From contig JASSUK010000042.1 of the NCBI GenBank assembly GCA_031963045.1, forward strand, positions 1,030 to 65,029: a stretch of 64,000 nt of DNA. Reading direction: 5' to 3'. The translations under genes were made by a program, and so were the position numbers. The notes beneath the pieces were generated by a model. That model had not been told where the DNA came from. It ran no database searches and saw only the letters and a program-made list of their open reading frames with translations. This DNA is from Mycoavidus cysteinexigens (lineage in GTDB: Bacteria; Pseudomonadota; Gammaproteobacteria; Burkholderiales; Burkholderiaceae). Shown in pieces: positions 807 to 61,638 of this stretch (position 1 is its first letter; every line of letters starts with the position of its first letter).

Positions 807-3800
807 TTGAACAGGACATGGGCTCAAGAAGCAAACCGAAAGGTGCCCATAGAAAGTATGTCGCCTATTTCCCCCGCTCATTCTCCGTCAGCCTCCCCTC
901 GTCCAACGCCGCCGGTGCAAAGGCCAACGACAGGAGAGGCCATTGCTGATTCTAGGCCGCTTAATCAAACCGCGCCAGCACACGGGGGAGGATCGCTAAT
1001 AGAAAGGTTTAGGTTTGCTCGTTCGCTTGGGCCAAGGTCTTCGGTTTCAACGCAGCCGCAAGGATCTGAACAGACATCGGAAGCGCTTAGACATGCTCAG
1101 GAAGCTTTGAAGGATGCCGATACGCAACGGATGGAAGGAAAACTCGAGACTGCAGAGGTCACTTATACGGCGGCGATAAACAATTTTAACCGCTCTTATC
1201 CAAATAATCAGTCGATGCCCGCCGATGTGAAAATTGGATTAGCTAAAGCTTATTGCGGGCACGGTATGACTTTATCCATGAGTGGTAGATTCGATGAGGG
1301 GCGTAAGGACTTTGAAATGGCCGTTGGATTAGGATCAAAAAAAGCTACCAGCATATTAAGCATTATTCCATATGGTAGTGCGAGCACCACTGTCCCTAAT
1401 CATTTCAATTCTCAGCAGGCATCACCACTCTCTTTCACTGAAAATCGTGCTGTAAAGCTAACACACGATATTAAGCATACGCGACATTTAGCTGAGAGCT
1501 GGTTAGCTGCTTCTAAGGTTGAACAGCGATCTTTTCGCGAATTAGCCGTAAAGATCCTTCATGCCGCCAATCTAAAAGGTCCCGATAAATTGGCTCATTC
1601 GCAGGAAATTGCGCCGCTAGCGGCAATTCCTGATCGTACAATTTTTAAAGAATGGATAGATATTATGTTTTCAGCTTTGTCTGGGAAGACTACGCTGAAT
1701 CAGCAAGCATTAAGAGGGCTGGAAGTTATGTTACACAAACTTCCACAATCATTGCTGAATACTGAAGAAGCGGAAAGCTATTTAGTAAAGCTGTTAGAGG
1801 CTTTAAATGAAAACCTAAATATAAGGCCCTGGGTAAACGTTGAAGCACTTCAACTTCTACTCCAAACCATTTCACAACTGTTAGATAAACTAGTCTGGAC
1901 TCGGCTTCAATATGGTGTGAACCGTATAAATTTACGTGATAAATTGAACAATAGCCTGATCAAGTTAAAGAATGAGTTAAAGAATAAATTAAAGGACGAT
2001 TACTCAGTATTGGAATTCCAAATCAATTATGTGCGCCAGGCTCTAGAGTTGATTCCTAATGAGGAAAGCCCCTTGGAAGAATTCTGTGATCGCCTATTTA
2101 ACGGATTCATGCTGATCACCAATGTTTACGCAGCAGTTGCAAGCATCAGCAAAGATGTTACTGGGCTTCAGTATGCTATGAATGCCGCTCTCACGAATAA
2201 AACTATGAGTCAAGCCAGCGTGGCGCTCTCTCAAAGAGCCTCTGTCACCTCTATCGCAGCTGGGATTGGGAGCGGCGCGAAAAGTGGCATGCCAGCTATT
2301 AAAGACTTAGCCGAAGCGATGTTTCAAGTGTGGAGATCAAGAGTCGTGTCACGGCCCTGGCTTATGGCATTGCAATTAGCCGATGCGTGCTTTGTGGGAC
2401 AAGGCCAGTTCTTTGAATTCGAGCGTTTTGTTAGGTGGGGTCCATATGGTAATGACAAAAATTTCTTGCAAGGTCTGTGCCAACGCTTAGAGTACATTGC
2501 CGGGCGTTATTATAGTGAAGCCGAACGTTTAAGAGTACTCCCAGCCTCACAAGTTGCTAACACAGTCAGACAGACAGAGGTAATTGCTCGGCAAGCTGTT
2601 AAGTTTTTAAGCATATTCACTATGGAAGGGCAGCCTGAGCCTGTGCAGAAAGCGGCTTTAAATGCTCTAAAGCGCTTAGATGTAAAGCTGCCTAAACTAC
2701 TACAAGATAATCAGGATTTTTTAAAGCTGGTGCGCCCTGACTCTATGTCTGCCCAGCAAGCTGGTCTCCGACCGATTGATATTCCGCCAGCCTGGCATAC
2801 CGACTGGTATACACCGCCTACTAGCCTACTAGAGAAACAATTAGATGGAGTCTCATGGCCCGATTTGAATAGAAAAATTCAGCAATTTGGAAAGACATAT
2901 TTAGAAACTAGACATTTAAAAACTCTGAAAAAAACCGTTAAAGATAATATCCAAGATATCGATATCTTGGTGAAGAAATATATAGAACCAAAATTTACAA
3001 GAATCGATGATGTAAGTGCGCGCTCACCGTTGGCATTCAGTGATACAGTTACTGAGTTTCTCGGCCATTCAAAGCAAAAATTTCTGTTGCTGTTGGGTGA
3101 CGCCGGCGCTGGCAAGACTATATTTAATCACTATCTTACTCGCGACTTGTGGGAAAAGTATAACGAATCGATCCAATTGGATGATGATTCGTCCTTTATT
3201 CCTTTATTTATTCATTTACCAGACTTAGGCCCAACCTTTGGCTCTCAGCCTAATAATTTTATTGTCGAATATTTCGAAAACCAAGGCTTGAAAGCATCAC
3301 AGATTCAGTTCTTACAAAAAACTCGGAATTTTATTTTTATTCTGGATGGTTATGATGAGTTAGGCTACATCCCTCGAGAATTCTATAAATACAATGAATT
3401 AGATAAATGGGAGCACTCAAAAACCATCATCAGCAGCCGACCAGAATATTTAGACTATAATCACAAAAGACATTTTGGCCTGTCCGGTATTCCTGAAATA
3501 TTTCAGGAATACCGGTTTGCGCCATTTTCTGAAGTAGATGTTAAGAATTATATCAAAGAATATATAGGTGAGGAGATCCTAGAAGAAGGAGTAAATAACA
3601 AGAAATATAAAAATGAAAATGAAATTTTTAACTCACTTTCACTTGAATTAAAAGAGTTGGTGCGCAATCCTTTTTTGCTCAACATTGCCTTACATTTCAT
3701 TCCATTAGATGAATCGAAAACGCTCAATGCTGGCCAGCGCCATTTCACGCGGTTTGAATTGTATAATCGATTCGTTGATAGCTGGTGTGATCGGTCTTAT

Positions 3801-6575
3801 GAACATTTAATAAAAAATAAGAAATCAGAAAAACAATTGGCATTTGATATATTAAGCAAAAAATTTGATAAAAATGTCGTATGTTTCGCTAAAAAATTTG
3901 CAGTAGCTATGCATCGAAAACAGCAGAAAAAAGTAGTTACAACTGAATATAAAATTTCAACTCAGGAACATGATTGGTCCGAAGAGCTACTCAAAAAATT
4001 ACTCGATGATGGGAATGTAAAAAACAGGCTGTTGCTTCAGAGCGCTCCATTAATTGATTTATATGATAAGTATGAGTTTATCCACAAATCATTTCAGGAC
4101 TATTTTGTAGCATATGCGCTATGGGACGGGCTTTCTACAATCGATCAGTCAGCATGGATCAACAAGTTGAGTGTGGTGAAAGATCCAGCTGTGCTCGACT
4201 TTCTGGTTGAGCTGGTACAGCAGGATCGAGGTTTAATAGGGCAGCTGATCGCTTGGATTAAGGCTTCGAAGAATGAAGTCTTTAAAACCGCAGCGGCGAA
4301 TGCGCTAACTATTTTGGTCAGAGCGAGAGTGCTGTTGAGTGGAGAGAATTTCAACCAGATTCATGCGCCTGGGGCAGATTTAAGTTATGGAGTGTTTGAC
4401 CATACCAAATTCGAGAAAGCAGATTTAAGAAGAGCGAAATTGCGAGGCGCATGGTTACGCGAAGCCGATTTCAATGGAGCAAAGCTAGCTGATATTGAAT
4501 TTGGGGAAAAACCGGCTTTAGAGTTCAATGAACATGTTAAAGCCTGTAGCCTTTCGTCTGACGGGCGCTGGCTGGCCGTTGGTACGGGCAGTCTTATTAG
4601 GCTGTATCAGGCTGAGAGTTTGAGGCGGAAGAAAACGTTTGACAGGCATTTTGGTGATGTGGTGAGTGTGTCGCTATCGTCAGATGGAAAGTTGTTAGCG
4701 TCTGGGGATGACAAAGGGATGGTGAAAGTGAGGCAGTTTAAAGATGGAGGATGGTTATCACATAATCTGAGTGAAAGCCATAGCGATAAGAGGACTCATG
4801 TATCGCTATCGTCAGACGGGAATTGGTTAGCGTCATGGAATACTGGGGGCCGGGTGAAGGTATGGCAGTTTGAGAGTGGGAGCTGGTCCTCGCATGATCT
4901 ACCCGAAGAGCATGACAATAAGGTAGTGAGTGTGTCGCTATTGCCATTTGGAGAGTCGTTATTGTTAGCAGCTGGCTGTAGAGATGGTAAGGTAGAAGTG
5001 TGGGGGTTAGAAAATGAAGGCGCAGGCTGGTCGCTACGCGTCTCGCCTGAAGGGCATGACCGTGACTATGCTGTAGAGAGTGTGTCGCTATCGTCAGATA
5101 GGAAATTGTTCTTATTAGCGTCTGTGGATACAAGCCGTGTGGTGAAGTTGTGGCAGTTTGAACGTGTAGCCTGGTCGCCGTATGTTATACCTGAAGGGCA
5201 TGACTCTAATGTAATGAATGCTTCGCTATCGTCAGATGGAAAATGGTTAGCATTAGGGAATGGAAATGGTACGGTGACAGTGTGGGATGTGGGAAGCGCA
5301 AAAATGTCCTTGCGAGAGACGCTTGAATGGCATGGTGGTAGAGTAAATAGTGTGTCTCTATCATTAGATGGGAAGCGGTTAGCATCAGGAGGCTCGGACA
5401 AGACGGTGAAGTTATGGGAATTAGAAAGCGCAGGAGCATCGTTGCGTGATCCGCTTGAACGACATCATGGTGTTGTGAGTAGTGTGTCGCTATCTTCAGA
5501 TGGGAATTGGCTCGCGTCAGGAAGTTGGGGCGGGACGGTTAATGTGTGGAAGTTTGAAAGCGGAAGAGAAAATTGGCCGCTGTCTAAGACGCTCGTAAGG
5601 TATGGTGGTGAGATGGGGGGGACTAGTGTCTCGTTATCGTCAGACGGGACGAGGTTAGCATCAGGGAATATAAACGGTAAGGTGGAAGTATGGCAATTAG
5701 AAAGGGGAAGTACTGATTGGCTGTGGCATAAGGCGTTTGAAGGGGGGACTATTTTTAATAGTGTGTCGTTCTCGTCGGACGGGCAGCGGTTAGCATTGGT
5801 GAGGGGGAGGGGTATAGCGAATGTGTGGCAGTTTGAAGGTGATAGTTGGGTAAGCGTGCCGTTACTACCAGATAGGAATTTGGTAGCGTTAAGAACGGAA
5901 GGAATGGTAACGATACGGCGGTTAAGTGATGATAAGGTGGTGAAAAATGTGTCGCTATCGTCAGATGGGAATTGGCTAGCGTCAAGAACCATGGATGGCA
6001 TGGTAAATATGCAGCGGTTAGGAAGTGAACCTACAATTTCGCCGTTGGGTAGTCCGTTTATATGGGGTAGTGGTAGTACGCTGAGTAATGTATCACTATC
6101 GTCAGACGGGAAGCGGTTAGCATTAGGAAGCGTTAACGGGTCGGTGTGGTATTTCGAAGGTGAAAATTGGTCGAAGCTTAAAATACTTGAGGAGCATAGT
6201 GATCTGGTGACTAGTGTGTCGCTATCGCCAGACGGACAGTGGTTAGTTTCTGGAAGTCGGGATGGAACGGTAAAGCTGTGGTCAGTGGATTCAGAAAAAT
6301 GTGAGGCGACAATTCAAAATTCTATTGGAAAGGTTACTTCAGTTGCTTGGCAAGGACTTTCTGTGGACTCTGCTAAAATAGCGACAGGAGGGACCGATGG
6401 GACGGTTCGTATTTGGCAAGTAGATCACAAAGAAAACGATCGGCGGTTCATTTTATCGTGGACCTCATGTCAAAACAGGCTGACCGTAGCCGGCATGTCT
6501 ATTGAAGGCATAGAGGATTTGAGCCCAACAAATGCCCGTTTGCTGAAGCAAAGGGGCGCACATGACGGGGCCTGA
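807..6575 (+). CDS. NLR-like STAND NTPase, paralog 1: N-terminal S/P-rich and TPR/helical region (about 750 aa), NACHT, pentapeptide repeats, divergent WD40 repeats
   Basis: 1922-aa ORF. Walker A LLLLGDAGAGKT (about nt 3085-3120) and Walker B FIFILDGYDEL (about nt 3331-3363). Pentapeptide tract GADLSYGVFDHTKFEKADLRRAKLRGAWLREADFNGAKLADIEF. About 15 repeats built on VSLSSDG(K/N)(W/L)LASG...V(K/N)(V/L)W. The track start is a TTG without an SD; ATG at 858 (MSPISPAHS) is an alternative start. Confidence 0.85.
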   Translation: MNRTWAQEANRKVPIESMSPISPAHSPSASPRPTPPVQRPTTGEAIADSRPLNQTAPAHGGGSLIERFRFARSLGPRSSVSTQPQGSEQTSEALRHAQEALKDADTQRMEGKLETAEVTYTAAINNFNRSYPNNQSMPADVKIGLAKAYCGHGMTLSMSGRFDEGRKDFEMAVGLGSKKATSILSIIPYGSASTTVPNHFNSQQASPLSFTENRAVKLTHDIKHTRHLAESWLAASKVEQRSFRELAVKILHAANLKGPDKLAHSQEIAPLAAIPDRTIFKEWIDIMFSALSGKTTLNQQALRGLEVMLHKLPQSLLNTEEAESYLVKLLEALNENLNIRPWVNVEALQLLLQTISQLLDKLVWTRLQYGVNRINLRDKLNNSLIKLKNELKNKLKDDYSVLEFQINYVRQALELIPNEESPLEEFCDRLFNGFMLITNVYAAVASISKDVTGLQYAMNAALTNKTMSQASVALSQRASVTSIAAGIGSGAKSGMPAIKDLAEAMFQVWRSRVVSRPWLMALQLADACFVGQGQFFEFERFVRWGPYGNDKNFLQGLCQRLEYIAGRYYSEAERLRVLPASQVANTVRQTEVIARQAVKFLSIFTMEGQPEPVQKAALNALKRLDVKLPKLLQDNQDFLKLVRPDSMSAQQAGLRPIDIPPAWHTDWYTPPTSLLEKQLDGVSWPDLNRKIQQFGKTYLETRHLKTLKKTVKDNIQDIDILVKKYIEPKFTRIDDVSARSPLAFSDTVTEFLGHSKQKFLLLLGDAGAGKTIFNHYLTRDLWEKYNESIQLDDDSSFIPLFIHLPDLGPTFGSQPNNFIVEYFENQGLKASQIQFLQKTRNFIFILDGYDELGYIPREFYKYNELDKWEHSKTIISSRPEYLDYNHKRHFGLSGIPEIFQEYRFAPFSEVDVKNYIKEYIGEEILEEGVNNKKYKNENEIFNSLSLELKELVRNPFLLNIALHFIPLDESKTLNAGQRHFTRFELYNRFVDSWCDRSYEHLIKNKKSEKQLAFDILSKKFDKNVVCFAKKFAVAMHRKQQKKVVTTEYKISTQEHDWSEELLKKLLDDGNVKNRLLLQSAPLIDLYDKYEFIHKSFQDYFVAYALWDGLSTIDQSAWINKLSVVKDPAVLDFLVELVQQDRGLIGQLIAWIKASKNEVFKTAAANALTILVRARVLLSGENFNQIHAPGADLSYGVFDHTKFEKADLRRAKLRGAWLREADFNGAKLADIEFGEKPALEFNEHVKACSLSSDGRWLAVGTGSLIRLYQAESLRRKKTFDRHFGDVVSVSLSSDGKLLASGDDKGMVKVRQFKDGGWLSHNLSESHSDKRTHVSLSSDGNWLASWNTGGRVKVWQFESGSWSSHDLPEEHDNKVVSVSLLPFGESLLLAAGCRDGKVEVWGLENEGAGWSLRVSPEGHDRDYAVESVSLSSDRKLFLLASVDTSRVVKLWQFERVAWSPYVIPEGHDSNVMNASLSSDGKWLALGNGNGTVTVWDVGSAKMSLRETLEWHGGRVNSVSLSLDGKRLASGGSDKTVKLWELESAGASLRDPLERHHGVVSSVSLSSDGNWLASGSWGGTVNVWKFESGRENWPLSKTLVRYGGEMGGTSVSLSSDGTRLASGNINGKVEVWQLERGSTDWLWHKAFEGGTIFNSVSFSSDGQRLALVRGRGIANVWQFEGDSWVSVPLLPDRNLVALRTEGMVTIRRLSDDKVVKNVSLSSDGNWLASRTMDGMVNMQRLGSEPTISPLGSPFIWGSGSTLSNVSLSSDGKRLALGSVNGSVWYFEGENWSKLKILEEHSDLVTSVSLSPDGQWLVSGSRDGTVKLWSVDSEKCEATIQNSIGKVTSVAWQGLSVDSAKIATGGTDGTVRIWQVDHKENDRRFILSWTSCQNRLTVAGMSIEGIEDLSPTNARLLKQRGAHDGA

Positions 6576-10046: not shown

Positions 10047-12725
10047 ATGGTCATAACTGGAAGCCCTTTTTTACCATGTTCGGTATTACGTTCAAGCTCA
10101 TCCTCCTCATCGCAGGTTTTTCCGGAAATAAATAGTTCAGCTGAGGTGGAAATACGCGATCAAGCAATAAATTTTAATAATCGATCTAAAAGAAGCAATA
10201 ATGCTTCAGGCGAATGTCAATATTCAACTGTAAACGTTCAGATCAATGATTTTCCGCAGTCATCATTAGAAGTTAATCGGCTTAGTTCTTTTATAAACCA
10301 AGCATCAATCTATGCATCTGGAAATATTCAATCAACCGATCTGCATCATGGGCAAGTGGACAATGTCGAAGCAATTACTGATGCATTTCAGTCCTTGCAA
10401 ATAAGGCATCAGCCTGAGGCTGTTACTGCTCCATCTCAAAGGGAAATTAGCTTTTCCGCAGATGAACAAATAAGAAAAATATTGCCTAACAAGGCTCTTG
10501 ACTTATTAGAAGAGATTAAATTATCCATTAACAATGCTGGTAAATTTATAAAAGCAATCGAAAATTTGCTCGGTTATGGAGTAGGGATTCGTATATTTTA
10601 TAAGATAAACGATGTCGGTAGCTTAGTAAATTTCCTGAAGAATCCATCTGATAACATTCATAAAAATGAAATAAAGGTACTTTGGACACTTGCAGATAAA
10701 ATGGTATGTGCTTTTCTTAAATATAATTTCATTAGCACCTCTTCGATTAACGAGATTTTAGAACTAAAATCTTTGATGCAAGAACAGTTATGGGAAAATG
10801 TAGAAAATAAATTTCAAGAAATGATTGATTTTACCATTGGTAAAATCAATGCATACTGGAAAAATAAAAATGATGGGCAGGATATATTTTTTCTACTTGA
10901 AAATTTATATGTATTGGTTAAATATATTAAAAATTTTAATAAAAAAGAAAATAATTTATTAAAAATAATAATCAATTTGAGTAGCGTTATTCAATATATT
11001 CCTTCAAAAGAAGAAAGATTTCGGAGAAAATTAAATGTTTTAGTGTCTAAAATTTTAAATGAGATATCTGTGCACGATTATAAATATAATTTTCACCTTT
11101 CTGAATTTGAATTGCCGTTGCAGAGATTATACGTACACTTTTCGTATTTGGAAAATAACTCAGATTATTATATAAATTATCTTGCCAACTATACGTGCCA
11201 GAGTTTAATAAATATTTATAAATTTTCTTACTTTATTAACGATGGAGCCAATTCTTCAGAATTGAGTAAAAGCCAACAAAGTGATTGGTATGTAAAGCTG
11301 CGAGAATACTATAAAATAGTAAATGAAGGTGAAATTAAAAAAATTAAATTTAGTGATTTAAAATATTTTTTAGATAAGCTAACTAACTTAGAAAAAAAAT
11401 TATTTTTAGGTGGTTTATACGAAAATTTAATTCATAATTTATTTGGCATTAAGCTAAAAAACTGTACGCGGCAACAGGTTTTTGAGCTTTTGGATAAGAT
11501 TATAAATGAGTACCCGGCTTTAATGGCAAAGCAGAGTTTTATAAGAAATATCAAACTTCCCGCAGAGGAGAGTTTTTTTTGGGTTTCCGCATTGCCAGAA
11601 ATAAACCAAAGGGTGGAATTAAATAATTGGCTTAAAAAAATTTCTAACGAAAGAAAATCGCAATCTGAATTTCTTGCAAGCTTGAAAGGTTTGTTATTAA
11701 ATTCTATTTTTACTGTGCCGCTCAAATTTAACTATCTAATCAAACATGCTAAAAGAAAAATAATAAAGAAAGTCAGGCAAAAAGTTTATCCGTTCCTAAA
11801 ATTAGGTGATTTAGATTTTCGAAGTAGTCCATTTCGTCATCTTCGTTATATGAGAACAGCGATGGATAATATCCCCTCTTATCGGAACACCGCCTCTATG
11901 AAATATGTAGATGAAAATGGCAAAGCATTTTATTTAATGGCCCATAGTATGGGAAACCCTCAAGGGGGGAAGATAATTTTACCTAGGCGGTTCGTAGTAG
12001 GCGATGATAATTGCTCAGATCGTGGACACAGTGAGGCAGTGTTATTGGCCGCTCATGCAATTGGTCATATTAAGGTTAAAGGCTGGGGTACATTGAACCT
12101 AGCTGGCCTTAAGCAAGAGTATTGTGCATCCACCAATGAGCCATGTTCTACAGGGGAGGCCTGCAAATTGAGTCTGCTGCCCTCATTACCTACTATATTT
12201 TATGCTAATAGTTATAAAGGCCATGAAGATGCAAACGGCTTTATGGATAAGCTTCATGCACACCAGTGGAGAAAGAATGAAGACGAATCTTATGAAAGCG
12301 AGGTCGAAAGCGAAGAAGAATGTGAAGTATTTGTGTTAGACGGGGAGTATTTTAAGGGCTTGGATTTGACCCACGAGCAAGAGCGAGAACCAGTCCCCGC
12401 TTGGCGTTTGCGTGATCACATTAAAGAAAAATCTCCTTATTATTCAGAACCTCTAGAAAACTCCTTTGAAAACAAATATTTTTCTGGTTATGTAAATATT
12501 CATAAAAATAGCTATAAAGCCCCGTTAATAGGAAAAAACGAGAGAATTGTAAAGTTAGGCATAAAAACAGAATCAGAAGTAGACGAACTGGATAGTGAAG
12601 TAGACTTAACAGCCGCTGTAGATACCTTCTGTGAGATAAGCGAACAACTTAAAATTTTACTCAGCAAACTTAAATCTTTGCGGAATGAAGCCCTCCAATA
12701 TTCTGGGGAAATAACCAAAATTTAA
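10047..12725 (+). CDS. large AT-rich hypothetical protein (892 aa); effector candidate with a C-terminal deaminase-like motif
   Basis: Uninterrupted 892-aa ORF in a very AT-rich segment. Ser-rich N-terminus (SVLRSSSSSSSQ). C-terminal GHSEAVLL...(35 aa)...TNEPCSTGEAC. Acidic tail. Confidence 0.75.
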   Translation: MVITGSPFLPCSVLRSSSSSSSQVFPEINSSAEVEIRDQAINFNNRSKRSNNASGECQYSTVNVQINDFPQSSLEVNRLSSFINQASIYASGNIQSTDLHHGQVDNVEAITDAFQSLQIRHQPEAVTAPSQREISFSADEQIRKILPNKALDLLEEIKLSINNAGKFIKAIENLLGYGVGIRIFYKINDVGSLVNFLKNPSDNIHKNEIKVLWTLADKMVCAFLKYNFISTSSINEILELKSLMQEQLWENVENKFQEMIDFTIGKINAYWKNKNDGQDIFFLLENLYVLVKYIKNFNKKENNLLKIIINLSSVIQYIPSKEERFRRKLNVLVSKILNEISVHDYKYNFHLSEFELPLQRLYVHFSYLENNSDYYINYLANYTCQSLINIYKFSYFINDGANSSELSKSQQSDWYVKLREYYKIVNEGEIKKIKFSDLKYFLDKLTNLEKKLFLGGLYENLIHNLFGIKLKNCTRQQVFELLDKIINEYPALMAKQSFIRNIKLPAEESFFWVSALPEINQRVELNNWLKKISNERKSQSEFLASLKGLLLNSIFTVPLKFNYLIKHAKRKIIKKVRQKVYPFLKLGDLDFRSSPFRHLRYMRTAMDNIPSYRNTASMKYVDENGKAFYLMAHSMGNPQGGKIILPRRFVVGDDNCSDRGHSEAVLLAAHAIGHIKVKGWGTLNLAGLKQEYCASTNEPCSTGEACKLSLLPSLPTIFYANSYKGHEDANGFMDKLHAHQWRKNEDESYESEVESEEECEVFVLDGEYFKGLDLTHEQEREPVPAWRLRDHIKEKSPYYSEPLENSFENKYFSGYVNIHKNSYKAPLIGKNERIVKLGIKTESEVDELDSEVDLTAAVDTFCEISEQLKILLSKLKSLRNEALQYSGEITKI

Positions 12726-14122: not shown

Positions 14123-15535
14123 CTATATTCGATGTGGTGTATTTTGGTTACTGCGATGAGCCGCTACTTGCATAACCGCTGTTGTTAAATCCTCTATGGT
14201 GAATTCCCGCTGTTTTTTTGTTCGTGCCTGACGCTTTTTCTGATTCGGGACTATGCCTTGATTAGATCTTGATGGGGAACCAGAAGCAGGGCGGTTATCA
14301 CGTTGGGCTTGTATAAGCTGTGCTGCCTGGAGAACATGGCTCAAGCGTTTATGCTCTACGACTGCACCTTGATTGATTTCAGATAATCTATCATAGCGTT
14401 GATAATCAAAGATCATACCGTTAGCATGTAGTTCAATTCGGCCATCAGGATATTCGTACACTTCAATATATTGATGAATCAACTTTCGGGTTTCAACGGT
14501 ATCATTAAGCAGATAAATCACACGGTCATACTGTACTGTCAATGAATGCGTTACACGGCGTGGTTCACGCCATGTAAAAATAGTATCGAGATCCTCATCT
14601 TCACGCAGTGGACGGTGTGCATTGAAGCTGCTTTTAGGGGGCTTTGCAAAACGCGCATTAAAATCAGCAATAAAGCACGGGATAAAAGCGTTAGCTGCTT
14701 CTTTATTACTAATATCACGTAATCGAAGTTCTTTAACTAACCGATCTTGCAAAGTCAGATTAGCTCTCTCAACACGCCCCTTCGCTTGACTTAAATTCGC
14801 ACAAATATTTTCAATATTAAGCTCGTACATGGCACGACCGAAATGAGTCATACCTTTATCGCTACGCGTGGCATGTTGTGCACTACGGAAAATAGTGGCC
14901 TTATCGCTATAAAATGCAAGTGGCTTGCCATATTTTTCTAAATAAGCGCGTGTTGCTTCAAAATAGCTAAAAGTGGATTCGGTGGGGGTGAAATGCAGAT
15001 GCATGATGCGGCTGGTGGCATCGTCGATATAGGCCAGCAACGTACAGGCAGGACCTCGACCCTCAAACCAATCATGATCACTGCCATCAATCTGAATTAA
15101 TTCACCCAGACAAGACCGTCGATTTCTGGGTTGGTAAATCTTAGGAGGGCATTGTCTTTTAGGGACCCATAGGTTTGCTTCAATCATCAAGCGGCGTACC
15201 GTTTCCTTAGCCAGCTTGATGCCGTGACATTCGCGCAGTTTCTCACAGGCTAACGTGGGGCCAAAGTCTGCGTAGTGCGCACGAATAAGTGCAATTGCAC
15301 GTGCAGTAATATTTGCTGGAAGTTGATGATTACTTGCTTTGCCGCGGTGACGAGAGGCTATCCCAGCGGCTCCAAATTGGAGATAGCGATCAACAATTCG
15401 TGTAATTTGCCGAGCACTCAAGCCCAGGCGTTCTGCAGCCTGATAATGCTTTAAACGACGCTCAATAACTGCTTCTATGACTTTGACGCGGTCAAGTTCG
15501 CGCATGCTCATCGTAATACATCCAGGTTTAGCCAT
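14123..15535 (-). CDS. transposase, integrase-core (rve/DDE) type with N-terminal HTH; ISNCY-like
   Basis: 470-aa ORF. N-terminal MSMRELDRVKVIEAVIERRLKHYQAAERLGLSARQITRIVDRY (HTH). Core GELIQIDGSDHDWFEGRGPACTLLAYIDDATSRIM...AFYSDKATIF is typical of this transposase group. Confidence 0.9.
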   Translation of the reverse strand: MAKPGCITMSMRELDRVKVIEAVIERRLKHYQAAERLGLSARQITRIVDRYLQFGAAGIASRHRGKASNHQLPANITARAIALIRAHYADFGPTLACEKLRECHGIKLAKETVRRLMIEANLWVPKRQCPPKIYQPRNRRSCLGELIQIDGSDHDWFEGRGPACTLLAYIDDATSRIMHLHFTPTESTFSYFEATRAYLEKYGKPLAFYSDKATIFRSAQHATRSDKGMTHFGRAMYELNIENICANLSQAKGRVERANLTLQDRLVKELRLRDISNKEAANAFIPCFIADFNARFAKPPKSSFNAHRPLREDEDLDTIFTWREPRRVTHSLTVQYDRVIYLLNDTVETRKLIHQYIEVYEYPDGRIELHANGMIFDYQRYDRLSEINQGAVVEHKRLSHVLQAAQLIQAQRDNRPASGSPSRSNQGIVPNQKKRQARTKKQREFTIEDLTTAVMQVAAHRSNQNTPHRI

Positions 15536-17170: not shown

Positions 17171-18400
17171 TTATAAAGAATGCTTATTTAACGCGCAAGT
17201 CGCTGCATTCTGAACACTCTTCACTGGATCTTTTTGCGCTAATGCGATAAGGACTTCCTTCGTTTGCGGGGATAAAGAGTGTAGTTCACCAAATAAGTTA
17301 GCCGATATTTCGCGGAATATCCCAACGGGATTTTTCGACAACAAGAGAATCTCTTGCTCTAATCGTGCTGGTGAGAGACGCTGCCGCAATACATGCATTA
17401 CTGCTTTCTGGACATTCAGTGCCTCATCTTTTAATAGTGGGATAATCTCTTGCTCTAATCGTACTTGCGGGAGAGACTGACCTAATATGCCAATTGATAT
17501 TTTTCGGACCTGCCACGCTGGATCTTTTAATAGAGGGGTAATGTACTGCTCTAATCGTGCAGCTGAAAGACGCTTACCTAATATGTCAACCGCTGTTTGT
17601 CTGACCTGCCAGGCTGGATCTTTTAATAACGGAGTAATCTTCTGTTCTACCTGTAGAATGAAGAGGCGATCGCCTAATAAGTTCATCACTGCTTGTCGGA
17701 TCGACCACTCTTGATCTTGTAATAGCGGCGTAACCTCTTGCTCTAACTGTACAACTGAGAAGCGCCAACCTACTACGTAAAACGCTGCTTTTCGAACTTG
17801 CCACGCTGGATCTTTTAATAACGGGGCAATGTACTGCTCCATGTCTGCTGGCAAATCGGACAAGCCGCTGAGGGTGGAAATTGCCTTTTCCCGAATCTGC
17901 CACGCTGGATCTTTCAGTTGCTGGATCGCCTCAAATTTACGTGCTAACTTAAGTGCGACTTGGTGTTCTTCCTCACAGATCTGCTTATTAGTTTCAAGTT
18001 CTTGCCTTAGTGCTGTGCATTCTTTTTCTTTAGCCTCAAGGCTTTCTTTTAAGCCCGTTTTCTCTTGATCAGCAGCTTCAATAGCTTGATTTTTCTGCTT
18101 TAGACTTTCATTCAGTTCATCAATCTGGCCTATAAAATAGGATAAAACTTGCTCGGTTACTCCTGCGTGTTGACTATTTCCTAACGTTGTTTCTATCCTT
18201 GCTAATGCTTGCCGCATGTCTTGTAGGCTGCAATCAGTAGCTTGGTTTGCTGCTTGAAGAGTTTCTATTGAGTTTTCATGGATATTTAGCAGCTCAGTCA
18301 GTAAGTTTTCCGCATTTCTCTCTTCTTGCGTAACCAATGGCACATATTGAGAGCTTGCTGCGCTACTTGTTGGAGTTAGTGTTGTGGATGGTAACTGCAT
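17171..18400 (-). CDS. HEAT-repeat protein with an N-terminal coiled coil; effector candidate
   Basis: Seven or more tandem 32-34-aa units (LEQxITPLLKDPAWQVRxxAxxxLGxRLS), a classic HEAT/PBS-lyase-type signature. S/T-rich N-terminus MQLPSTTLTPTSSAASSQ. Confidence 0.8.
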   Translation of the reverse strand: MQLPSTTLTPTSSAASSQYVPLVTQEERNAENLLTELLNIHENSIETLQAANQATDCSLQDMRQALARIETTLGNSQHAGVTEQVLSYFIGQIDELNESLKQKNQAIEAADQEKTGLKESLEAKEKECTALRQELETNKQICEEEHQVALKLARKFEAIQQLKDPAWQIREKAISTLSGLSDLPADMEQYIAPLLKDPAWQVRKAAFYVVGWRFSVVQLEQEVTPLLQDQEWSIRQAVMNLLGDRLFILQVEQKITPLLKDPAWQVRQTAVDILGKRLSAARLEQYITPLLKDPAWQVRKISIGILGQSLPQVRLEQEIIPLLKDEALNVQKAVMHVLRQRLSPARLEQEILLLSKNPVGIFREISANLFGELHSLSPQTKEVLIALAQKDPVKSVQNAATCALNKHSL

Positions 18401-20789: not shown

Positions 20790-22400
20790 TTAACATGGAT
20801 AGTAGGCATACAAGCATTTGTAACTTTGTTAGGTTTTGGCGACGCTAGCAGTTTTATCTTGCGCAGGCATTAGCCAATGGATCTGAGGCTCAAACGCGTA
20901 ACTTGGCAGTGTGATCTTGCGTCCTCTACCGGACGCTACCGCTTGCCAGTTAATTGTGGCCCCATGTTCATATAGCTTCGCCAGAGCCTTTTTTGTATAT
21001 ATACCTGCAAAGCGCCTTCTAGTACTACTTCGCAATGGCGGCTATCTGTTTTTGCAATTTTTCTAAGCATGTCTAGTGCTTTTGAATGTGCTGAAAAATT
21101 GGATGTACTATCAGGGTTAGGCATGAAAATCTCCCTTATAAAGAATGGAATCATTCGGTGCAGCTAAAACGATTCGTTCAATAATAAGATAATATTTCCG
21201 ATGCTATGACTGTGAAAATGGGTATGGAAGCCATTTGAGCATCATTCAATTATGGTAGTCAAGAAGAAAAAGGGAAGTTTGGCACGTGGGTCAGATTCAT
21301 CCATCATTCTCTGCAGGCCACCTGGTGTCGGAATCACTTTATTCGCACGAAACCGTATTCCGTGCATATTCGCAAAGGCAGTCGGGTTGCACGCTATCCT
21401 GAGAGCGCTTTTGCTAAGGCTAACGAATGGGAAAAAATTCTGATTAAGCTGGTTGAGGATCGATATGCATTGTTGCGACAGCGTTCAGCTGTATTGAGCC
21501 GATTGCGTGCTGTGCTCACGGAGTATGAACGTTTATTGGCAAGGGGCTTTGTCAGGTGCTCTGAAGATAGGTAGATAAAAATACAGCAGGTTTTTAGCGT
21601 ATACATTCGCTTCTTAAAAAAACCAACCCGAATTCTACAGCTTATAAATTGACAGCTCCCTCTTAAGGCGCAACAAGCGCGTTGTGTACGCTTTGCTCAA
21701 TTTATGCCTTCCTATGCCTTCCTACTATTTTTAATGCACGCGCCGCTGTGTTTTCCCCTTCCTGAAAAACTATAGGTATCACCCGATTCCTGCCACCCCT
21801 TCTTATATCTAGTATTCGCATGAACCCCATTTCCTGTCTCGCGCTTCACCTCGGATTAAGTGTAATAGGATGTGCGCTGGTCGTTCATGAGCGTGGCTGT
21901 TTTGCCTGACATAAGAAGTTGGCCTGGCACATTTCTCATTGTTTGCTTGAGACTGCGGATGATTAAAAAATAAAACGAATGAGGACAACCCTGCTGTCAC
22001 GTGTCACGGCAAAGATAGTGGAGTCTTGGCAACCTAAAGCAAGCGCGTTAGACCGTGCAAAAACGCGTCTGGAACAAGCAAAAGAGCAGAAAGAAGAAGG
22101 GAAGAAACGACGACGCATTGGGGAGCCTGATTTCAAGCTAAAGCTGCTCTCAAAACGCATCTTAAAGGTGGCGTGCAAATAGTCGAAACAAGACGTCTAC
22201 TGGCAGAACTCCAGCAGATGCGTGCGAAGATTTTGCCATTAACCCAAGATTTTACGTTCGACGAAGGACGTCAAAGCTATCTCAAAGCGCAAACCTATTC
22301 TCCTGACACGGCACAACAAGCAGAAATCCAAGCCCTTCTTGACGATTTACCTCGCGCTCCTCTATCAATCACTATAAATAGAGCATCTACGCTACCGCCT

Positions 22401-22451
22401 TCTGCTGTACCTGCTGTACCTGCTGTGCCTGCTGTGCCTGCTGTGCCTGTG
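22401..22451 (+). repeat. 9-bp tandem repeat (CCTGCTGTR, about 5.5 units) encoding (PAV)n
   Basis: Read directly: tctgctgta cctgctgta cctgctgtg cctgctgtg cctgctgtg cctgtg. Confidence 0.85.
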
Positions 22452-22771: not shown

Positions 22772-25700
22772 TTGAATTCATTGGGTATCTTCAGCGCCGG
22801 AGGGCGTCCGCTATTGCCAGTCACATTTCCACAGCGCCAGCCGCAAGCGGGGAATCAAGAAAAAGCCCAAAAATCGTACGGAGATGGGGTAGAGAAGGCT
22901 AAAACTGAACATGAAAAAAATCCTGGTGATCCGCAAGCAAAACAAAACTTAGATGCGATACGTAACAAATACTTCCCTTTTTTTAGTGGGCTTCAAGAGC
23001 CTGGTGCAGCGTTTAACCAGGAAAAAAGCAAGCAGGTGGATTATCTGTTTAAAAAGGCACTATCGACGCTAAGATCCTTAGCGGTACCGAATAAACCCAG
23101 CCTTTTTCTGGTGTATGCCCACGACAATCCCGCTCACGCCGAAAAGGCCGAGGCCAATATTTCTAGTTATTTAATCAATGAGTTATCTCAAATCCGAGCC
23201 AACCTGTATTCGGATCAAACGCCGATGGGGAAACCGTATTTGAGCTCCCCGGAAGATTTAAAAAAGGACGGTAAGTTAGAAGATATCTTAACCAGTCAGC
23301 TTTGTTTATTGCCCGATCAGTTGCGAGACGATGTAAAACCGGTCGATAAGGTCGTGGTGTGTTGTTCTGAGTTATTAGGAAGGTACTTGAGATGGCCGCA
23401 CTATGAAAAGTTTTACCAACAAATTCAAGAAGCCTATTTCAAAGATCGAGAAGCCTATCGCAAAAATGACGCACACGCCGGCACTTCGGCAATACGTCAA
23501 GTGGTCAGACAATTCTCCCAAGAAGAAGCCTATAAGGCGGATTTTCATCATGTATTGACGGAAATGGCTTTTTTGCAAATCCGGGCCGAGCACTCGGAAG
23601 CGCAGCACGGCATTATCCCGATTTCGTTAACCATAAATAGCTATCAACAATGCCTGGCGCATTTTATTCCAGCGACCACGGTGCGCATGGAGGATATTCT
23701 CCGATTTGAGGTGCAAGCCAAATCGGGAATAGAGGTATATCCGAATCAAAGTCGGCACTTGCTGCTGTTTAAGCTGATCGAGCGGCTGTTAGTGGGCAGC
23801 AATGAGGCCCAAACGTTTCTTGGCAAGTTTTGGCATGGGTATAACGATTGCATTAAATCTTCAGCGCTTGGCACACTTGAGTTTGCCAATTTATTAGATG
23901 GCATTTTTGCTGACATAGACAGAGAGCTGCGCAACCAGCTTGTTCTTAATGTACAGGAACAACAGCGTAAAGAACTGGAATCGAAGAAAGAGCCGCTTGC
24001 GATCTTAGGCGAAAACATCAAAAAAGAATATTTCACGACGTGGCGAAACCTGGTGGAAATTCAAGATGGCCTGGCGATGTATGTTGCACTGGAATGCAGC
24101 TTCATTACCAATACAAAAGAGCGCTTTAGTTTAGAAGAGAAGGTGAAAGAGTTTCTTGTTTCAGGAGAAAAAAAAGTACTGCTTTTATTGGGCGAAGCCG
24201 GTTCTGGAAAATCAACATTTAACCGGTATTTGGCGCGTAGTCTATGGGAAACGTATGACAAGGAAACCAATAAATCTAGCCAAACTCCTATTCCTTTATT
24301 TATTCCGCTATCGAGCTTGAAAGAGCCTAATGATAATCTTATTGCCGAATATCTTATAAAAATGGGGCTTAAAAAAAGCCAGATTGCTGATTTAAAAGAA
24401 AATTATCGCTTTATTTTTATTTTGGATGGGTATGATGAAATCAAAGATCGAACCCGCCTATTCTACATCGAAAATAAACTGGATCAATGGAAAGCCAAAG
24501 TCATCATTACCAGTCGGCCAGAATATTTTGGCAATGGATATGAGTGCCAGTTCCATCCAAAAGGCCAGGCATATTTACTCCAGGCATATCGACTCTCTCC
24601 ATTTTCTGATTTGACGATTGAGGAGTATGTAAACAAATACAAAAACGCGTACCCAGAATTAGAGAAAAATATCGTAGAGCATGGAGAGATTCTGAAGCAA
24701 CCCGAAGTTAAAGAGTTGGTACGCAATCCATTTTTGCTTAAGATGGCCTTGAGTGAATTGCCTGCTTTGAGCCAGAAATACAAGAATAGCGGACAGCGTA
24801 TTACCCGAATTGCGTTATATGATCAATTTGTAGAGAGCTGGTTTAAGCGTTCCCAGGATCGATTGAGAGATATTCGCTTAACTCACGCAGAGCAGAAGGC
24901 ATTTGATTTTTTAAACAAAGCCTTTATTAGGCATGGAACAAAATTCAGCAAAGATTTAGCGATAGCGATGTATCAAGCTGGATTGGTGAGTGTGGCGTAT
25001 TCTGAGCAACTCTCCTATGATCAGTCTGATGCTGTAGAGAAAGATTGGCGAGATAAATTTTTAAGTGATCGTAATGAACAAGTTAAGTTATTGCGCTTTA
25101 ATGCTCCGCTGATATGCCAAGATGACCGATATCAGTTTATTCATAAATCGATTCAGGATTATTTAGTTGCGCGAGCCATGTGGGAAGAGCTGGAAAACGC
25201 AAGCGAACGCGATGCCTCCAGTGGTGCTGAGCCGCTGAACGAGATAAAAAATGTGCGCCTGATATGGGAGGCATTGGACCCTGCCATTCAAGTCGATACC
25301 ACCGCATTATTGAACCGATTCAATTTAGTGGAGGAGCTAGCCGTCCAGAGTTTTTTAGTCGAGCGAGTCCAGCAGAACCGAGCGTTGGTGAAGCTCCTGT
25401 TGACGTGGATCAAAGCCTCAACGAGCCAAGATACTGTGAGTACAGCCGCGGCGAATGCGATCACGATCTTGGTTAGAGCAGGAGTGCAGTTTAATGGAAT
25501 GGATTTACAAGGAATTCAGATTCTGGGTGCAGATCTGAGCTATGGCGTATTTGACTCTGTACAGTTGCAAGGTGCAGATCTCAGCAAGACGAACTTAACT
25601 GGCATATGGTTGCGCAACGCAGGTTTAACGGGGGCGTGCATGGAGGGCGTGCAGTTTGGGGAATTACCGAGCTTGCAGTTGGAAGAATCTGTGGATGCTT

Positions 25701-29111: not shown

Positions 29112-30578
29112 CTACCTATTTTTTAATATTTTGTCAACGCCATCTATATATTTTCTTATGCTTTCTTGTTGCATAGGGCTATCACCGCTTGCAAAGTAGC
29201 TAAGGAATTCGTTTTTATATCTCTTTTCATTTCTCCAATGAAAAATATAAAATGCTATTACTTTTTCTTTTCTTTCTTTGGCAGCCTCTATATATTCTAT
29301 AGAGGTATTTATTTTGTTTTTGCAGTTTTTAAAAGATTCTTTTAAATATTTTTTCAAGTCAACTATGTCTTTTGGAATTTTTTCGGTGTCGAGCATGCCT
29401 GTAAAATGTTGACTTATGATTGAATTTTGCATGTCTTTTGTTTTTTTAAAACGTGTCTGATTTTTTTGTTTTTCTTTCAATTTTTTAGTCAAATCCTTAC
29501 AAGGTTTAATGCCATCTAATGGTTGATTTTTTAACATTGTGTCAAGTCCACTTGTATATCTTTTTATGCTTTCTTCCTTTATAGGGCTATCATCACTTGC
29601 AAAGCAGCTAATGAATTTTTTGTTATATCCCTTTTGATTTCTCCAATGAAAAATATAAAACGCCATTATTTTTTCTCCATTTTCTTTTGTGGCTTTTATA
29701 TATTCCTGAGAGGCAGTGTTTTTACTTGTAAATTTTTCCAAAGATTCTTTTAATGACTTTTTCAAGTCATCTATATTTTTTTGTATTTTTGCGGCATCTA
29801 GTGTGCCTGTATAATATTGATATATGATTGAATTTTGCATGCTTTTTATTTTTTTTAAACGTGTCTGATTTTGTTGCCTTTCTTTATCTTTTTTAATCAA
29901 ATGCCGAGGAGTTTTAATGACATTTAAGGAGTGGTTAAAAAGATAGTGATTCTCTTCACGCGAATGAGTATTTGCATTAAAATCATGTCCTGCTATAGGA
30001 GTGTACTGTAAAGCATTTTGACCTATTTCATCATGCAAATTGGTAGATACATCATGTATTTCTATATTTTTCTGACGATCAGGAGTAGTTTGAAAAATCA
30101 AGCTATTTTCTAGATTATGACCTGATGGCATTAATGGAGTATCTGTGTATCCTGCATCAAAGGGATATCCACTATATTGAAAAGGTTGACTTATCTCTAA
30201 TTGAAATGGAAGTTGAGGAGGCGTAGAAACTTCTGCTGGAATAAAAGTATCGCCAACATCCGGAAAAAGGTTAAATAAATCTGGATAATCTTTATCTATA
30301 TCAAACTGTGTTGGCCCTAATGGGTTGGCACTCGATTCATTAGAAATATCATCATGCGAAGGGGATCCTAATTTTTGCCGTTTTCTATTAGGATTTTTAT
30401 TAAGGCTATCATTCCCTCGCTTATTGCTTGAAGATAGGGCCGCTGGCAATGGAGTAAGTCCGTTAAACGGAACACTTGTCCCTTGACTATGCTGTGGGGG
30501 AGATGGAATACTTTCTCCAGGATAAGGAAACTGCTGCATATTCCATTCTTGGGAAACATACACTATGGACTTAACCAT
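29112..30578 (-). CDS. hypothetical protein (up to 488 aa) with a P/S-rich N-terminus, an NLS-like basic patch and two about 125-aa tandem repeats; effector candidate
   Basis: NPNRKRQKLGSP patch. Repeat 1 (...KERQQNQTRLKKIKSMQNSIIYQYYTG...AFYIFHWRNQKGYNKKFISCFASDDSP) and repeat 2 (...KEKQKNQTRFKKTKDMQNSIISQHFTG...AFYIFHWRNEKRYKNEFLSYFASGDSP). Start uncertain (MQQFPYPG is an alternative). Confidence 0.7.
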   Translation of the reverse strand: MVKSIVYVSQEWNMQQFPYPGESIPSPPQHSQGTSVPFNGLTPLPAALSSSNKRGNDSLNKNPNRKRQKLGSPSHDDISNESSANPLGPTQFDIDKDYPDLFNLFPDVGDTFIPAEVSTPPQLPFQLEISQPFQYSGYPFDAGYTDTPLMPSGHNLENSLIFQTTPDRQKNIEIHDVSTNLHDEIGQNALQYTPIAGHDFNANTHSREENHYLFNHSLNVIKTPRHLIKKDKERQQNQTRLKKIKSMQNSIIYQYYTGTLDAAKIQKNIDDLKKSLKESLEKFTSKNTASQEYIKATKENGEKIMAFYIFHWRNQKGYNKKFISCFASDDSPIKEESIKRYTSGLDTMLKNQPLDGIKPCKDLTKKLKEKQKNQTRFKKTKDMQNSIISQHFTGMLDTEKIPKDIVDLKKYLKESFKNCKNKINTSIEYIEAAKERKEKVIAFYIFHWRNEKRYKNEFLSYFASGDSPMQQESIRKYIDGVDKILKNR

Positions 30579-60549: not shown

Positions 60550-61638
60550 TCAGAAAAGAAATTTAATAATTTTACCTTTTCTATTTTTTATCTCAGGGCA
60601 ATTAAATTGATTTTCAGATAAACCATTCCCGCTTAAATTAACTCCCTCAAGTGTTAAGTCATATTCTGGATAATTTTTTGCGTATCCTGATAATATTTTG
60701 AAAAAATTATCTACTCCTTCTTTAGTAATATTATTATTACGATCCAAAAGTAAGTATGTCAGCCCTTTAGGTAATGCCTTAGCTATATGCTCTAAGCCCG
60801 CATTGCCAATTTGATTGTTACCTATTATTAAGTAATTAACGGTCATTGTTTTAAGATATGGGGCTAGCCCTTCTGCACCCATTTCTCCAATTTGATTTTC
60901 GGAAAATATGAGTCTCTCGAAAAAATTATTTGCGAGAGCTTCTCCAAGACTAGTAATGCATGAGCGCATATCAAATCTTTGACAACTTAGTATTATTCGA
61001 GATACTTCTCTATTATTTGATGTTATTAATTTTATTTTATTAAATAAATCATTAATAAAATTTTCTCTGTATTCTGCCTCAGCATACAGTCTATGTATTT
61101 GTAGCTGCAATATTCTTATATCTTTTTTACGTGCTATTTCATCAAGTGCTATCAAGGTATTTTCACATTTCCCAGGGCCATATGGTTGAATAAGTAAATT
61201 CATGCACTGCATTTCATTCAGTAATGATTTTTTAATAGCCTCCCGAATTTTATCTTCTTTTAAAGAATCTGTACCAAATTCTCTCGTTTCTATCATCTGA
61301 AATTCCACCATGGAATTTATAAGTTGACTTTTTATTTGTTCTTCTGTTATCTTCTTTTTCATGACAGGGGCATGATCTATAAAATATTTAATATTATTGT
61401 GAAGTGATTTATTTGCAAAGCTGATTGGGCGTAGTTGTTTTATCGCTTCTTCGTAAAAACAGGGGTATGCAATATAATTGCAAATTATATTTAGTATTTC
61501 TGTTGGGAGATTGGTTAGTGAGGCGAGCTTATTTTTATAATACCCATCTTCAATCATTAATCCATGTCCTACATTTTCCTCGTTAACATTAAATTGTGAT
61601 GATATTTTATTATTTGATGTAATGCTGTGAGTATTCAT
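60550..61638 (-). CDS. F-box-like plus leucine-rich-repeat (RNI-type) protein; eukaryote-like effector candidate
   Basis: LPTEILNIICNYIAYP...LRPISFANKSLHNNI fits the F-box pattern (LPxEIL..I...L....L..vnK.w). C-terminal 28-aa RNI-like LRRs (NQIGEMGAEGLAPYLK..., NQIGNAGLEHIAKALPKGLTYLLLDRNNNITKEGV). Very AT-rich. Confidence 0.75.
   Translation of the reverse strand: MNTHSITSNNKISSQFNVNEENVGHGLMIEDGYYKNKLASLTNLPTEILNIICNYIAYPCFYEEAIKQLRPISFANKSLHNNIKYFIDHAPVMKKKITEEQIKSQLINSMVEFQMIETREFGTDSLKEDKIREAIKKSLLNEMQCMNLLIQPYGPGKCENTLIALDEIARKKDIRILQLQIHRLYAEAEYRENFINDLFNKIKLITSNNREVSRIILSCQRFDMRSCITSLGEALANNFFERLIFSENQIGEMGAEGLAPYLKTMTVNYLIIGNNQIGNAGLEHIAKALPKGLTYLLLDRNNNITKEGVDNFFKILSGYAKNYPEYDLTLEGVNLSGNGLSENQFNCPEIKNRKGKIIKFLF

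Follow-up and report, generated by a model that had tools for sequence, protein, structure and literature searches.

What does a bacterium that lives inside a fungus do with a giant protein of the NOD-like receptor (NLR) type, and at whose components is that protein directed? The question is raised by a gene, referred to here as p1, at 858-6575 on the plus strand of a 64,000-nucleotide stretch (hereafter the window) of contig JASSUK010000042.1, positions 1,030 to 65,029, in assembly GCA_031963045.1 of Mycoavidus cysteinexigens. A second giant gene, p2, lies at 22772-27775 on the same strand. The initial annotation had read the two as paralogs bearing different heads on a common chassis, and took this as the hallmark of a diversifying conflict system. 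The family it recognized is real, but it had been published before, which the annotation missed: judged from its sequence, p1 is an intact, new and divergent member of the described NLR-like family of endofungal bacteria and Mortierellomycota.

The relationship of the two proteins was established by pairwise alignment, which the initial annotation had proposed as a check. BLASTP returned one colinear alignment of p1 residues 662-1901 with p2 residues 375-1624 (36% identity, 616 bits, E=0) and no significant similarity upstream of p1 residue 662. The homology breakpoint was thereby mapped to residues ~662-705 (nt ~2841-2970), the alignment being solid from near LVKKYIEP at residue 704. At 36% identity and 616 bits the proteins are true paralogs with a common NACHT/winged-helix/pentapeptide/WD40/tail chassis and unrelated heads, as had been claimed, and all the motifs quoted in support of that claim were found at the expected positions of p1.

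The chassis of p1 opens with a NACHT NTPase domain (PF05729; residues 743-904, nt 3084-3569), which scores 30.9 bits against a gathering cut-off of 26.7. It contains the Walker A motif GDAGAGKT (residues 747-754, nt 3096-3119), the Walker B motif FIFILDGYDE with its DGYDE core (residues 825-834, nt 3330-3359) and, in IISSRPEY (residues 857-864, nt 3426-3449), an SSRP motif of the S/T-R-P type; together with the Pfam match, these assign p1 to the NACHT clade of the signal transduction ATPases with numerous domains (STAND). A helical, winged-helix-like region (residues 905-1158, nt 3570-4331) follows, which was delimited by BLASTP and motifs, is conserved across the family and includes FIHKSFQDYFVAYALW (residues 1074-1089, nt 4077-4124) and AAANALTILVRA (residues 1145-1156, nt 4290-4325). 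The pentapeptide-repeat tract (residues 1159-1218, nt 4332-4511) was recognized by PF00805 (E 7.8e-7); pentapeptide-repeat proteins were also the sole matches when residues 1-1231 were searched against PDB sequences.

Fourteen divergent WD40 blades (residues 1221-1870, nt 4518-6467) were identified from WD40 Pfam matches and anchor spacing, from which we infer two 7-bladed propellers. Thirteen anchors of the VSLSSDG type and a terminal blade are spaced 41-62 residues apart, and Tandem Repeats Finder detected no tandem array at the DNA level between 4.5 and 6.5 kb; the repeats are thus divergent, irregular in length and VSLSSDG-based, just as first described. The conserved C-terminal tail (nt 6468-6572), detected by BLASTP and by its motif GMSIEGIEDLSPTNARLLKQRGA at residues 1879-1901, recurs in the proteins P0001, P0046, P0054 and P0059. 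Comparison by domain with 'HNWD1' of M. cysteinexigens (P0178) gave the highest identity in the pentapeptide tract (70%), followed by the head domain ARM_5 (48%) and NACHT (45%), and the lowest in the WD40 region (34-35%). This gradient would fit a variable WD40 sensor mounted on a conserved switch.

The head of p1 had been presented as the novel part of the protein. It is instead the standard head of the family, ARM_5 (PF23948, E 3e-35), and the p2 head is the minority type. The ARM_5 alpha-solenoid occupies residues 204-579 (nt 1467-2594) and was identified by Pfam (E 3.1e-35; 122 bits against a cut-off of 27; profile positions 3-355 of 419) and in an all-helical model; PF23948 was presumably built from the solenoid cluster of Wojciechowski et al., discussed below. 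Structure prediction of the N-terminal module, also proposed at the outset, was performed with AlphaFold2 from a 38-sequence alignment, since a single sequence gave a predicted local distance difference test (pLDDT) score of only 45. The alignment-based model (pLDDT 74.5, predicted template-modelling score 0.68) is all-helical and consists of a disordered leader, hairpins at residues 70-170 and alpha-solenoid stretches at ~200-420 and ~475-625, with pLDDT above 90 across most of residues 200-400 and 530-620. The supposed TPR-like helices (residues 69-175, nt 1062-1382) are weak by sequence, the TPR_1 and TPR_12 Pfam matches of the head (E ~0.01) staying below cut-off, but helices are modelled there at residues 70-169 with pLDDT mostly above 85, and above 90 in the hairpins. 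The end of the head and the pre-NACHT linker (residues 580-742, nt 2595-3083) hold the homology breakpoint and the family motif PxWxPxW at residues 642-654.

Foldseek comparison of the head with the PDB retrieved generic TPR, ARM and HEAT solenoids alone (best E 4e-3, TM <=0.2 over the query), and a specific structural relative can therefore not be named. Pfam, and Foldseek against the PDB, detected no nuclease, TIR, protease or other enzyme or killing domain in the head, and Pfam, Foldseek and the PDB sequence search returned no known enzyme or housekeeping family, in agreement with the original expectation. The head is accordingly modelled as a scaffold-type fold and not as an enzyme. A word-indexed homology search with residues 1-731 gave no match, while exhaustive phmmer found 135 head homologs, most of which are at least 1,400 residues long and so likely share the overall architecture. 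Those named in M. cysteinexigens are 'HNWD1' (47% identity), a 'WD40 repeat-containing protein', a 'Myosin heavy-chain kinase' and 'HNWD3'; further bacterial ones come from a 'Glomeribacter sp.' metagenome-assembled genome (MAG) and from BRE MAGs, and fungal ones from Linnemannia gamsii, Mortierella alpina, Entomortierella beljakovae and Mortierella sp. AD011.

The place of p1 in this family was determined with its core (residues 700-1230). The best match was M. cysteinexigens P0001 (E 1e-97 over 98% of the core), followed by many Mortierellaceae proteins, several of which carry PF23948, NACHT and pentapeptide repeats. p1 aligns at full length with the locus L002, and both architectures of the window have full-length counterparts in Mycoavidus, namely HNWD1 (47% in the head) and L012 (50% over 1,751 residues). 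A scan of bacterial genomes, with one GTDB representative per species (the genome of the window itself not being one of them) and a best core match of 43%, yielded 63 family loci. Almost all of these come from MAGs that bear the label 'Mycoavidus cysteinexigens BRE-…', with as many as 16 in a single MAG of the ~3-Mb class, and the rest belong to a few uncultured Gammaproteobacteria and one Myxococcales genome. A bootstrapped neighbour-joining tree was built from 42 cores over 624 columns. It pairs p1 with HNWD1 as sisters (bootstrap 0.94) inside an endofungal-bacterial clade, and p2 lies elsewhere in the same clade (0.67); the Mortierellaceae cores and one BRE sequence form a separate clade (0.96), and the gammaproteobacterial and myxobacterial cores fall outside both. 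Colinear homology from NACHT to the LLKQRGA tail and the grouping with Mycoavidus sequences thus place p1 in the family. The topology would allow the chassis to have originated in bacteria, but the direction of transfer is not settled by it, the clade of BRE and fungal sequences having a bootstrap of 0.54.

The organism itself is, by its sequences, a deeply divergent Burkholderia-related endofungal bacterium, because the NadE protein of the window is just ~56% identical to that of other Burkholderiaceae, other Mycoavidus MAGs included, and 97% identical to that of BRE-AM1000 (GCA_031963365.1), with which it shares the ppa-nadE-hrpB1…T3SS synteny (T3SS, type III secretion system).

Since many homologs are annotated as fungal, p1 might be suspected of being mis-binned host DNA, or a recent fungal gene without function in the bacterium. 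Mixing of assemblies does happen, because some 'fungal' records are clearly bacterial and vice versa: records labelled Linnemannia gamsii (P0232, P0048) look like bacterial contamination, among them a NadE of Burkholderiaceae type and an NLR head whose N-terminus has the endobacterial form MQKIAGVSSFKR, and conversely an NLR from a BRE MAG (L061, BRE-AD266) groups with the fungal clade. Such cross-contamination of fungal and endobacterial assemblies could distort gene-transfer inferences for the NLR-like family as a whole. For p1, however, this explanation is very improbable. Its contig also holds the bacterial NadE, an inorganic pyrophosphatase, an insertion sequence (IS) transposase and the T3SS. 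The open reading frame (ORF), 1,905 codons plus stop in the ORF listing, is single, unbroken and intron-free over 5.7 kb, and the core clusters with endobacterial and not with fungal sequences. The GC content at third codon positions (GC3) is 0.36-0.46 across every p1 domain and 0.33-0.47 in the housekeeping and T3SS genes of the window; because it equals that of the resident genes, p1 is a long-standing resident and no recent import.

An observation apart concerns the HNWD1 locus of M. cysteinexigens B1-EB (L065, DF850521.1 1485809-1511472). Here an ARM_5-only gene (853 aa), a NACHT-WD40 gene (1,262 aa) and HNWD1 stand in tandem, and the ~9-kb stretch after HNWD1 is open in several frames on both strands, presumably as highly repetitive DNA.

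Swapping of heads, on which the notion of a diversifying conflict system had rested, was followed by the proposed comparison with related genomes. When heads were typed across the tree, ARM_5 proved to be the default in the endobacterial clade and was present in full-length fungal members too. The p2-type head was found solely in p2, in L012 (BRE-AD073) and in two BRE-AM1000 loci, nested among ARM_5-headed cores, and the gammaproteobacterial and myxobacterial outgroup proteins have no long head. In P0049 of BRE-AD073 the same ARM_5 head is joined to an unrelated NACHT and a HEAT-repeat C-terminus, from which it follows that heads and chassis have been recombined within the family. Swapping as such therefore stands, but neither is p1 the odd one out nor did the exchange take place here: by sequence comparison, neither architecture arose in this genome, since both have Mycoavidus counterparts at 47-50% identity. 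An IS transposase with helix-turn-helix domains lies at 14123-15535 on the minus strand, and copies 69-76% identical to it occur within 8 kb of NLR genes in several Mycoavidus MAGs (L014, L019, L022, L044); such an element may have served to duplicate or shuffle members of the family.

From the architecture, the intact motifs, the family, the organism and the genomic context described so far, a switch mechanism, a scaffold role of the head and a host-directed role can be proposed. We consider it somewhat better than an even bet that p1 is an intact, vertically maintained STAND-family switch (ARM_5 head, NACHT, winged helix, pentapeptide tract, 14 WD40 blades and tail) which is gated by a ligand, brings scaffold heads together and acts on the host. 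Established knowledge of STAND and NLR proteins is the model for its mechanism. The double WD40 propeller would bind a protein ligand and keep the NACHT domain ADP-bound and off; ligand binding would lead to nucleotide exchange and oligomerisation of the NACHT-winged-helix module, with the pentapeptide beta-helix acting as a rigid spacer; and the non-enzymatic heads, thus gathered, would form a multivalent scaffold by which partner proteins are recruited or sequestered. That the family has expanded in reduced endosymbiont genomes, and that p1 sits among eukaryote-like repeat proteins in an island next to a T3SS, makes components of the fungal host the likeliest ligand and partners, ahead of bacterial ones. 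The chance that p1 acts on the host at all is put at slightly under one half, and export by the T3SS, which forms part of it, is rated distinctly lower, as possible but doubtful.

Several points weigh against this switch model. The Pfam score of the NACHT domain barely exceeds its threshold (30.9 against 26.7 bits). The bootstrap of the whole bacterial clade is modest (0.67), the tree being a neighbour-joining one of 42 sequences only. Instead of providing the output, the solenoid head might serve autoinhibition or sensing, and no feature of the p1 sequence shows exit from the bacterium.

If p1 does not leave the cell, it could be a bacterium-autonomous sensor of phages or mobile elements of the bNACHT/Avs kind, which triggers abortive infection or growth arrest. 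Bacterial defence proteins related to NLRs are known to follow the layout of N-terminal module, NACHT and C-terminal repeats. Defence genes also typically form multi-copy families with shuffled heads and variable sensors, IS copies adjoin several members of this family, and prophages occur in Mycoavidus genomes (PMC5877345). Yet residues 1-1231 of p1 match none of the 5,027 PADLOC models (E<=0.01), no killing domain, be it a nuclease, TIR, protease or another, was recognized in the head, up to 16 large copies in a reduced, host-restricted genome would be unusual for phage defence, and the closest non-endosymbiont relatives do not have the head. On balance, a role in defence is unlikely.

A complete Hrp2-type T3SS cluster is located at 38930-59811; it lies outside p1 at a distance of ~32 kb and comprises HrpB1 (two copies), HrcS, HrcR, HrcQ, HpaP, HrcV, HrcU, HrpB2, HrcJ, HrpB4, HrcL, HrcN, HrpB7, HrcT and HrcC. 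Perfect hrpII boxes (TTCG-N16-TTCG) are found at 39571-39594 and 49787-49810 on the minus strand and at 49936-49959 on the plus strand, 79-113 bp upstream of three T3SS operons. They suggest that this reduced endofungal bacterium retains an intact regulon of the HrpB/HrpX type.

The N-terminus of p1 is set by the choice of start codon. A TTG at 807, which would extend the protein to 1,922 residues, is the start in the public gene call (P0044). ATG 858 is favoured because the N-terminus read from it, MSPISPAHSPSA (M-SPISPAHSPSA…), aligns with MLPPICSIHSPSV, the RefSeq N-terminus of the M. cysteinexigens ortholog P0178/HNWD1. The leader that results (residues 1-68, nt 858-1061) is S/P-rich in composition, with S or P at 17 of the 50 N-terminal residues and Pro3 and Ile4, and is predicted to be disordered (pLDDT ~30-47 in the AlphaFold2 model). 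The initial annotation had called it free of acidic residues; this is correct for 26 residues but not for the whole leader, as the first acidic residue is at position 27. Its ~13 N-terminal residues are conserved in HNWD1, and only the p1/HNWD1 orthogroup has the S/P leader, other paralogs beginning with MQKI.G..FKR or MLSRITAK. A scan for sigma-70 promoters and terminators gave nothing over background. About 440 bp upstream of the p1 start lies a palindromic element (324-418) with 22-nt arms, 95% complementary and 51 nt apart, which occurs once in the window and might be a remnant of a miniature inverted-repeat transposable element, a terminator or an RNA.

p1 could accordingly be a T3SS-delivered effector, whose S/P N-terminus serves as export signal and which in the fungal cytoplasm mimics, poisons or hijacks the ARM_5-headed NLRs of the host. 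Its N-terminus has the composition of Hrp effectors, a permissive criterion: S and P make up 17 of 50 residues, no acidic residue occurs in the first 12 or indeed the first 26, and Pro and Ile occupy positions 3-4. The ~13 N-terminal residues are kept in the M. cysteinexigens ortholog despite 35-48% identity elsewhere, the host fungi encode homologs bearing the same head, five more orphan ORFs of the 1-35 kb island have like N-termini, and a complete Hrp2 T3SS with intact hrpII boxes is at hand at 38.9-59.8 kb. However, the 400 bp upstream of p1 contain no hrpII box (TTCG-N16-TTCG), not even one with a single mismatch, whereas three T3SS operons have perfect ones at -79 to -113. Such a box is not obligatory for T3SS effectors. 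The S/P-rich leader is also absent from most other family members, a protein of 1,905 residues with two beta-propellers must unfold completely for export, compositional rules are of loose specificity, and 32 kb with an IS element in between separate p1 from the T3SS cluster. A secretion signal in the leader, which had been suggested from the start, is thus plausible by context and composition, and delivery of p1 into the host is tentatively entertained as the less probable outcome.

The comparison of N-termini extends to the neighbouring genes. Within 0-35 kb the window encodes p1, p2, an ARM_5-fragment protein, a HEAT-repeat protein and three orphans, and a leucine-rich repeat (LRR) protein follows the T3SS cluster. 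The sum of S and P in the 50 N-terminal residues is 16-17 in p1, orf10047, orf18565 and orf29112, with no acidic residue among the first 12 except for one in orf29112. It is 12 in orf32948 and 9 in the HEAT-repeat protein at 17171-18400, both without an acidic residue in the first 12, the latter having 24 polar residues (S, P, T, Q, N). The values are 2-7 in housekeeping genes and in structural genes of the T3SS, apart from hrpB4 with 10.

The ORF at 10047-12725 (plus strand) encodes an 892-residue orphan with an ARM_5 fragment (PF23948, E 2.3e-7), no NACHT and a poly-Ser, acid-free N-terminus; a 41%-identical homolog adjoins an NLR gene in BRE-AV005 (L058). Its correspondence to the ARM_5-only gene beside HNWD1 in M. 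cysteinexigens was considered and rejected, as there is no significant similarity, and a deaminase-like HxE…PC…C motif (HSE…PCSTGEAC) at its C-terminus finds no support in Pfam. The HEAT-repeat protein (17171-18400, minus strand) contains 96-bp DNA tandem repeats at 17426-17839 and a polar, acid-free N-terminus; with the LRR protein at 60550-61638 (minus strand) it makes up the further eukaryote-like repeat proteins flanking the T3SS region. The ORF at 29112-30578 (minus strand, 488 residues), with an S/P-rich N-terminus, is preceded by a one-mismatch hrpII box, TTCGTTTTATAGCAGGATATTACG, at 30714-30691. This box, at -113, shares its distance and spacer start with the hrcU box, and by these features orf29112 is the best candidate for a type III effector in the window.

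p2 combines the chassis of p1 with another head and regular 42-aa WD repeats. Its first ~400 residues match no Pfam family, and the "SEFIR-like" domain once assigned to them could not be upheld in Pfam or PDB searches, both at the sequence level only. A 5' truncation of p2 by frameshifts was also considered and rejected, its N-terminus being colinear with that of the BRE-AD073 ortholog. Of its 14 blades, ten of the 13 spacings are exactly 42 aa; a spacing of 41 occurs once, and three spacings are irregular, including one of 67 aa near residues 1067-1134, where one blade is damaged; at the DNA level the repeats form a 126-bp x10.4 tandem array with 82% matches. The pentapeptide and WD region (25472-27571) has a GC3 of 0.66 against 0.24-0.47 for all other genes of the window, which could reflect recent import from a GC-richer donor or GC-biased conversion among the repeats. 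Upstream of p2 and in another frame, a short ORF (21979-22182, plus strand) encodes MRTTLLSRVTAKIVESWQPKASALDRAK…, which resembles N-termini of the family such as MLSKITVKFVESLQPK… of M. cysteinexigens HNWD3 and MLSRITAKMVESWQPK… of BRE-AV005; this ORF was probably left behind by a third NLR gene, now degraded. A 9-bp x5.3 repeat (PAVPAVPAV) comes next, at 22402-22449.

Few inter-kingdom transfers of immune-type receptors are as clear as that of the NLR-like proteins common to Mycoavidus-type endobacteria and Mortierellomycota, whose part in the symbiosis the describing authors left open. p1 adds a deeply divergent lineage, which makes both head types old, and its analysis identifies ARM_5 as the default head and adds evidence for recombination of heads with chassis. 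Its position in a eukaryote-like repeat island with effector-like N-termini, beside a complete Hrp2 T3SS, leads to a concrete, testable hypothesis: the endofungal bacterium would export, via Hrp2, NLR-like kin of the receptors of its host, with the S/P N-terminus of p1/HNWD1 as export signal, and so disturb the NLR signalling of the host or turn it to its own use, either through hetero-oligomerisation or through competition for ARM_5 partners. We regard this as a speculative and rather unlikely scenario. If it is true, an effector-receptor pair of common descent stands on both sides of the symbiosis and the interpretation of 'bacterial NLRs' changes; if export does not occur, p1 is an ordinary member of the described family.

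Among known systems, large repeat-rich Hrp effectors are represented by the SKWP/RipS HEAT-ARM and GALA LRR proteins of Ralstonia and by the TAL-like Btl proteins of Mycetohabitans. p1 resembles them as a very large eukaryote-like repeat protein with an S/P-rich, acid-poor N-terminus near an Hrp2 cluster. It differs in having no hrpII/PIP box and in its NACHT NTPase, and its translocation is only hypothetical; to our knowledge, no known type III effector contains a NACHT NTPase. The Btl proteins have been treated in the literature (PMC11261895).

With the bNACHT/Avs proteins p1 shares the position of a STAND NTPase between an N-terminal module and C-terminal repeats, and it differs from them by the missing PADLOC match and by a head without an enzymatic effector domain. 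The HNWD proteins of Podospora anserina (HET-E, HET-D, HET-R), after which 'HNWD1' is labelled, likewise have a NACHT and WD40 STAND layout, a multigene organization and variable sensor repeats. Unlike these, p1 has a pentapeptide tract and no high-identity WD repeats, the highly similar tandem repeats of Podospora HNWD, a mark of concerted evolution, being a feature shown by p2 (126 bp x10.4), and Pfam detected no HET domain in its N-terminal 1,231 residues at E<=1. The name 'HNWD1' on the Mycoavidus ortholog is an annotation transfer and no evidence of orthology.

The closest parallels are the published NLRs of Mycoavidus and Mortierellomycota. Pezizomycotina and Mortierellomycetes were described as having NLRs with an alpha-solenoid head of more than 500 residues in two stretches, which in Mucoromycota occurs together with WD40, and its bacterial homologs were reported 'mainly in Mycoavidus cysteinexigens', with horizontal transfer suggested (Wojciechowski, Dyrka et al., 10.1101/2022.03.16.484565 = PMC9815663). 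The p1 head is likewise a solenoid joined to NACHT and WD40 (Pfam E 3e-35, all-helical model), with an extra 68-residue disordered S/P leader common only to its HNWD1 ortholog. NACHT-PPR-WD40 NLRs were described in M. cysteinexigens and Mortierellomycota and interpreted as gene transfer between kingdoms (Ciach et al., 10.1101/2021.12.02.471044 = PMC11291939). They have the same domain order as p1 and a core alignable throughout, and the closest named relative of p1 is M. cysteinexigens 'HNWD1' (BBE08475.1 / WP_081953518.1), 47% identical in the head and sister in the core tree. Compared with the published Mycoavidus NLRs, p1 belongs to the genome of a much more divergent Burkholderia-related lineage (NadE only ~56% identical to that of other Mycoavidus genomes) and has irregular instead of near-identical WD blades, and it adjoins an Hrp2 T3SS, a link undiscussed in the papers on the Mycoavidus and Mortierellomycota NLRs.

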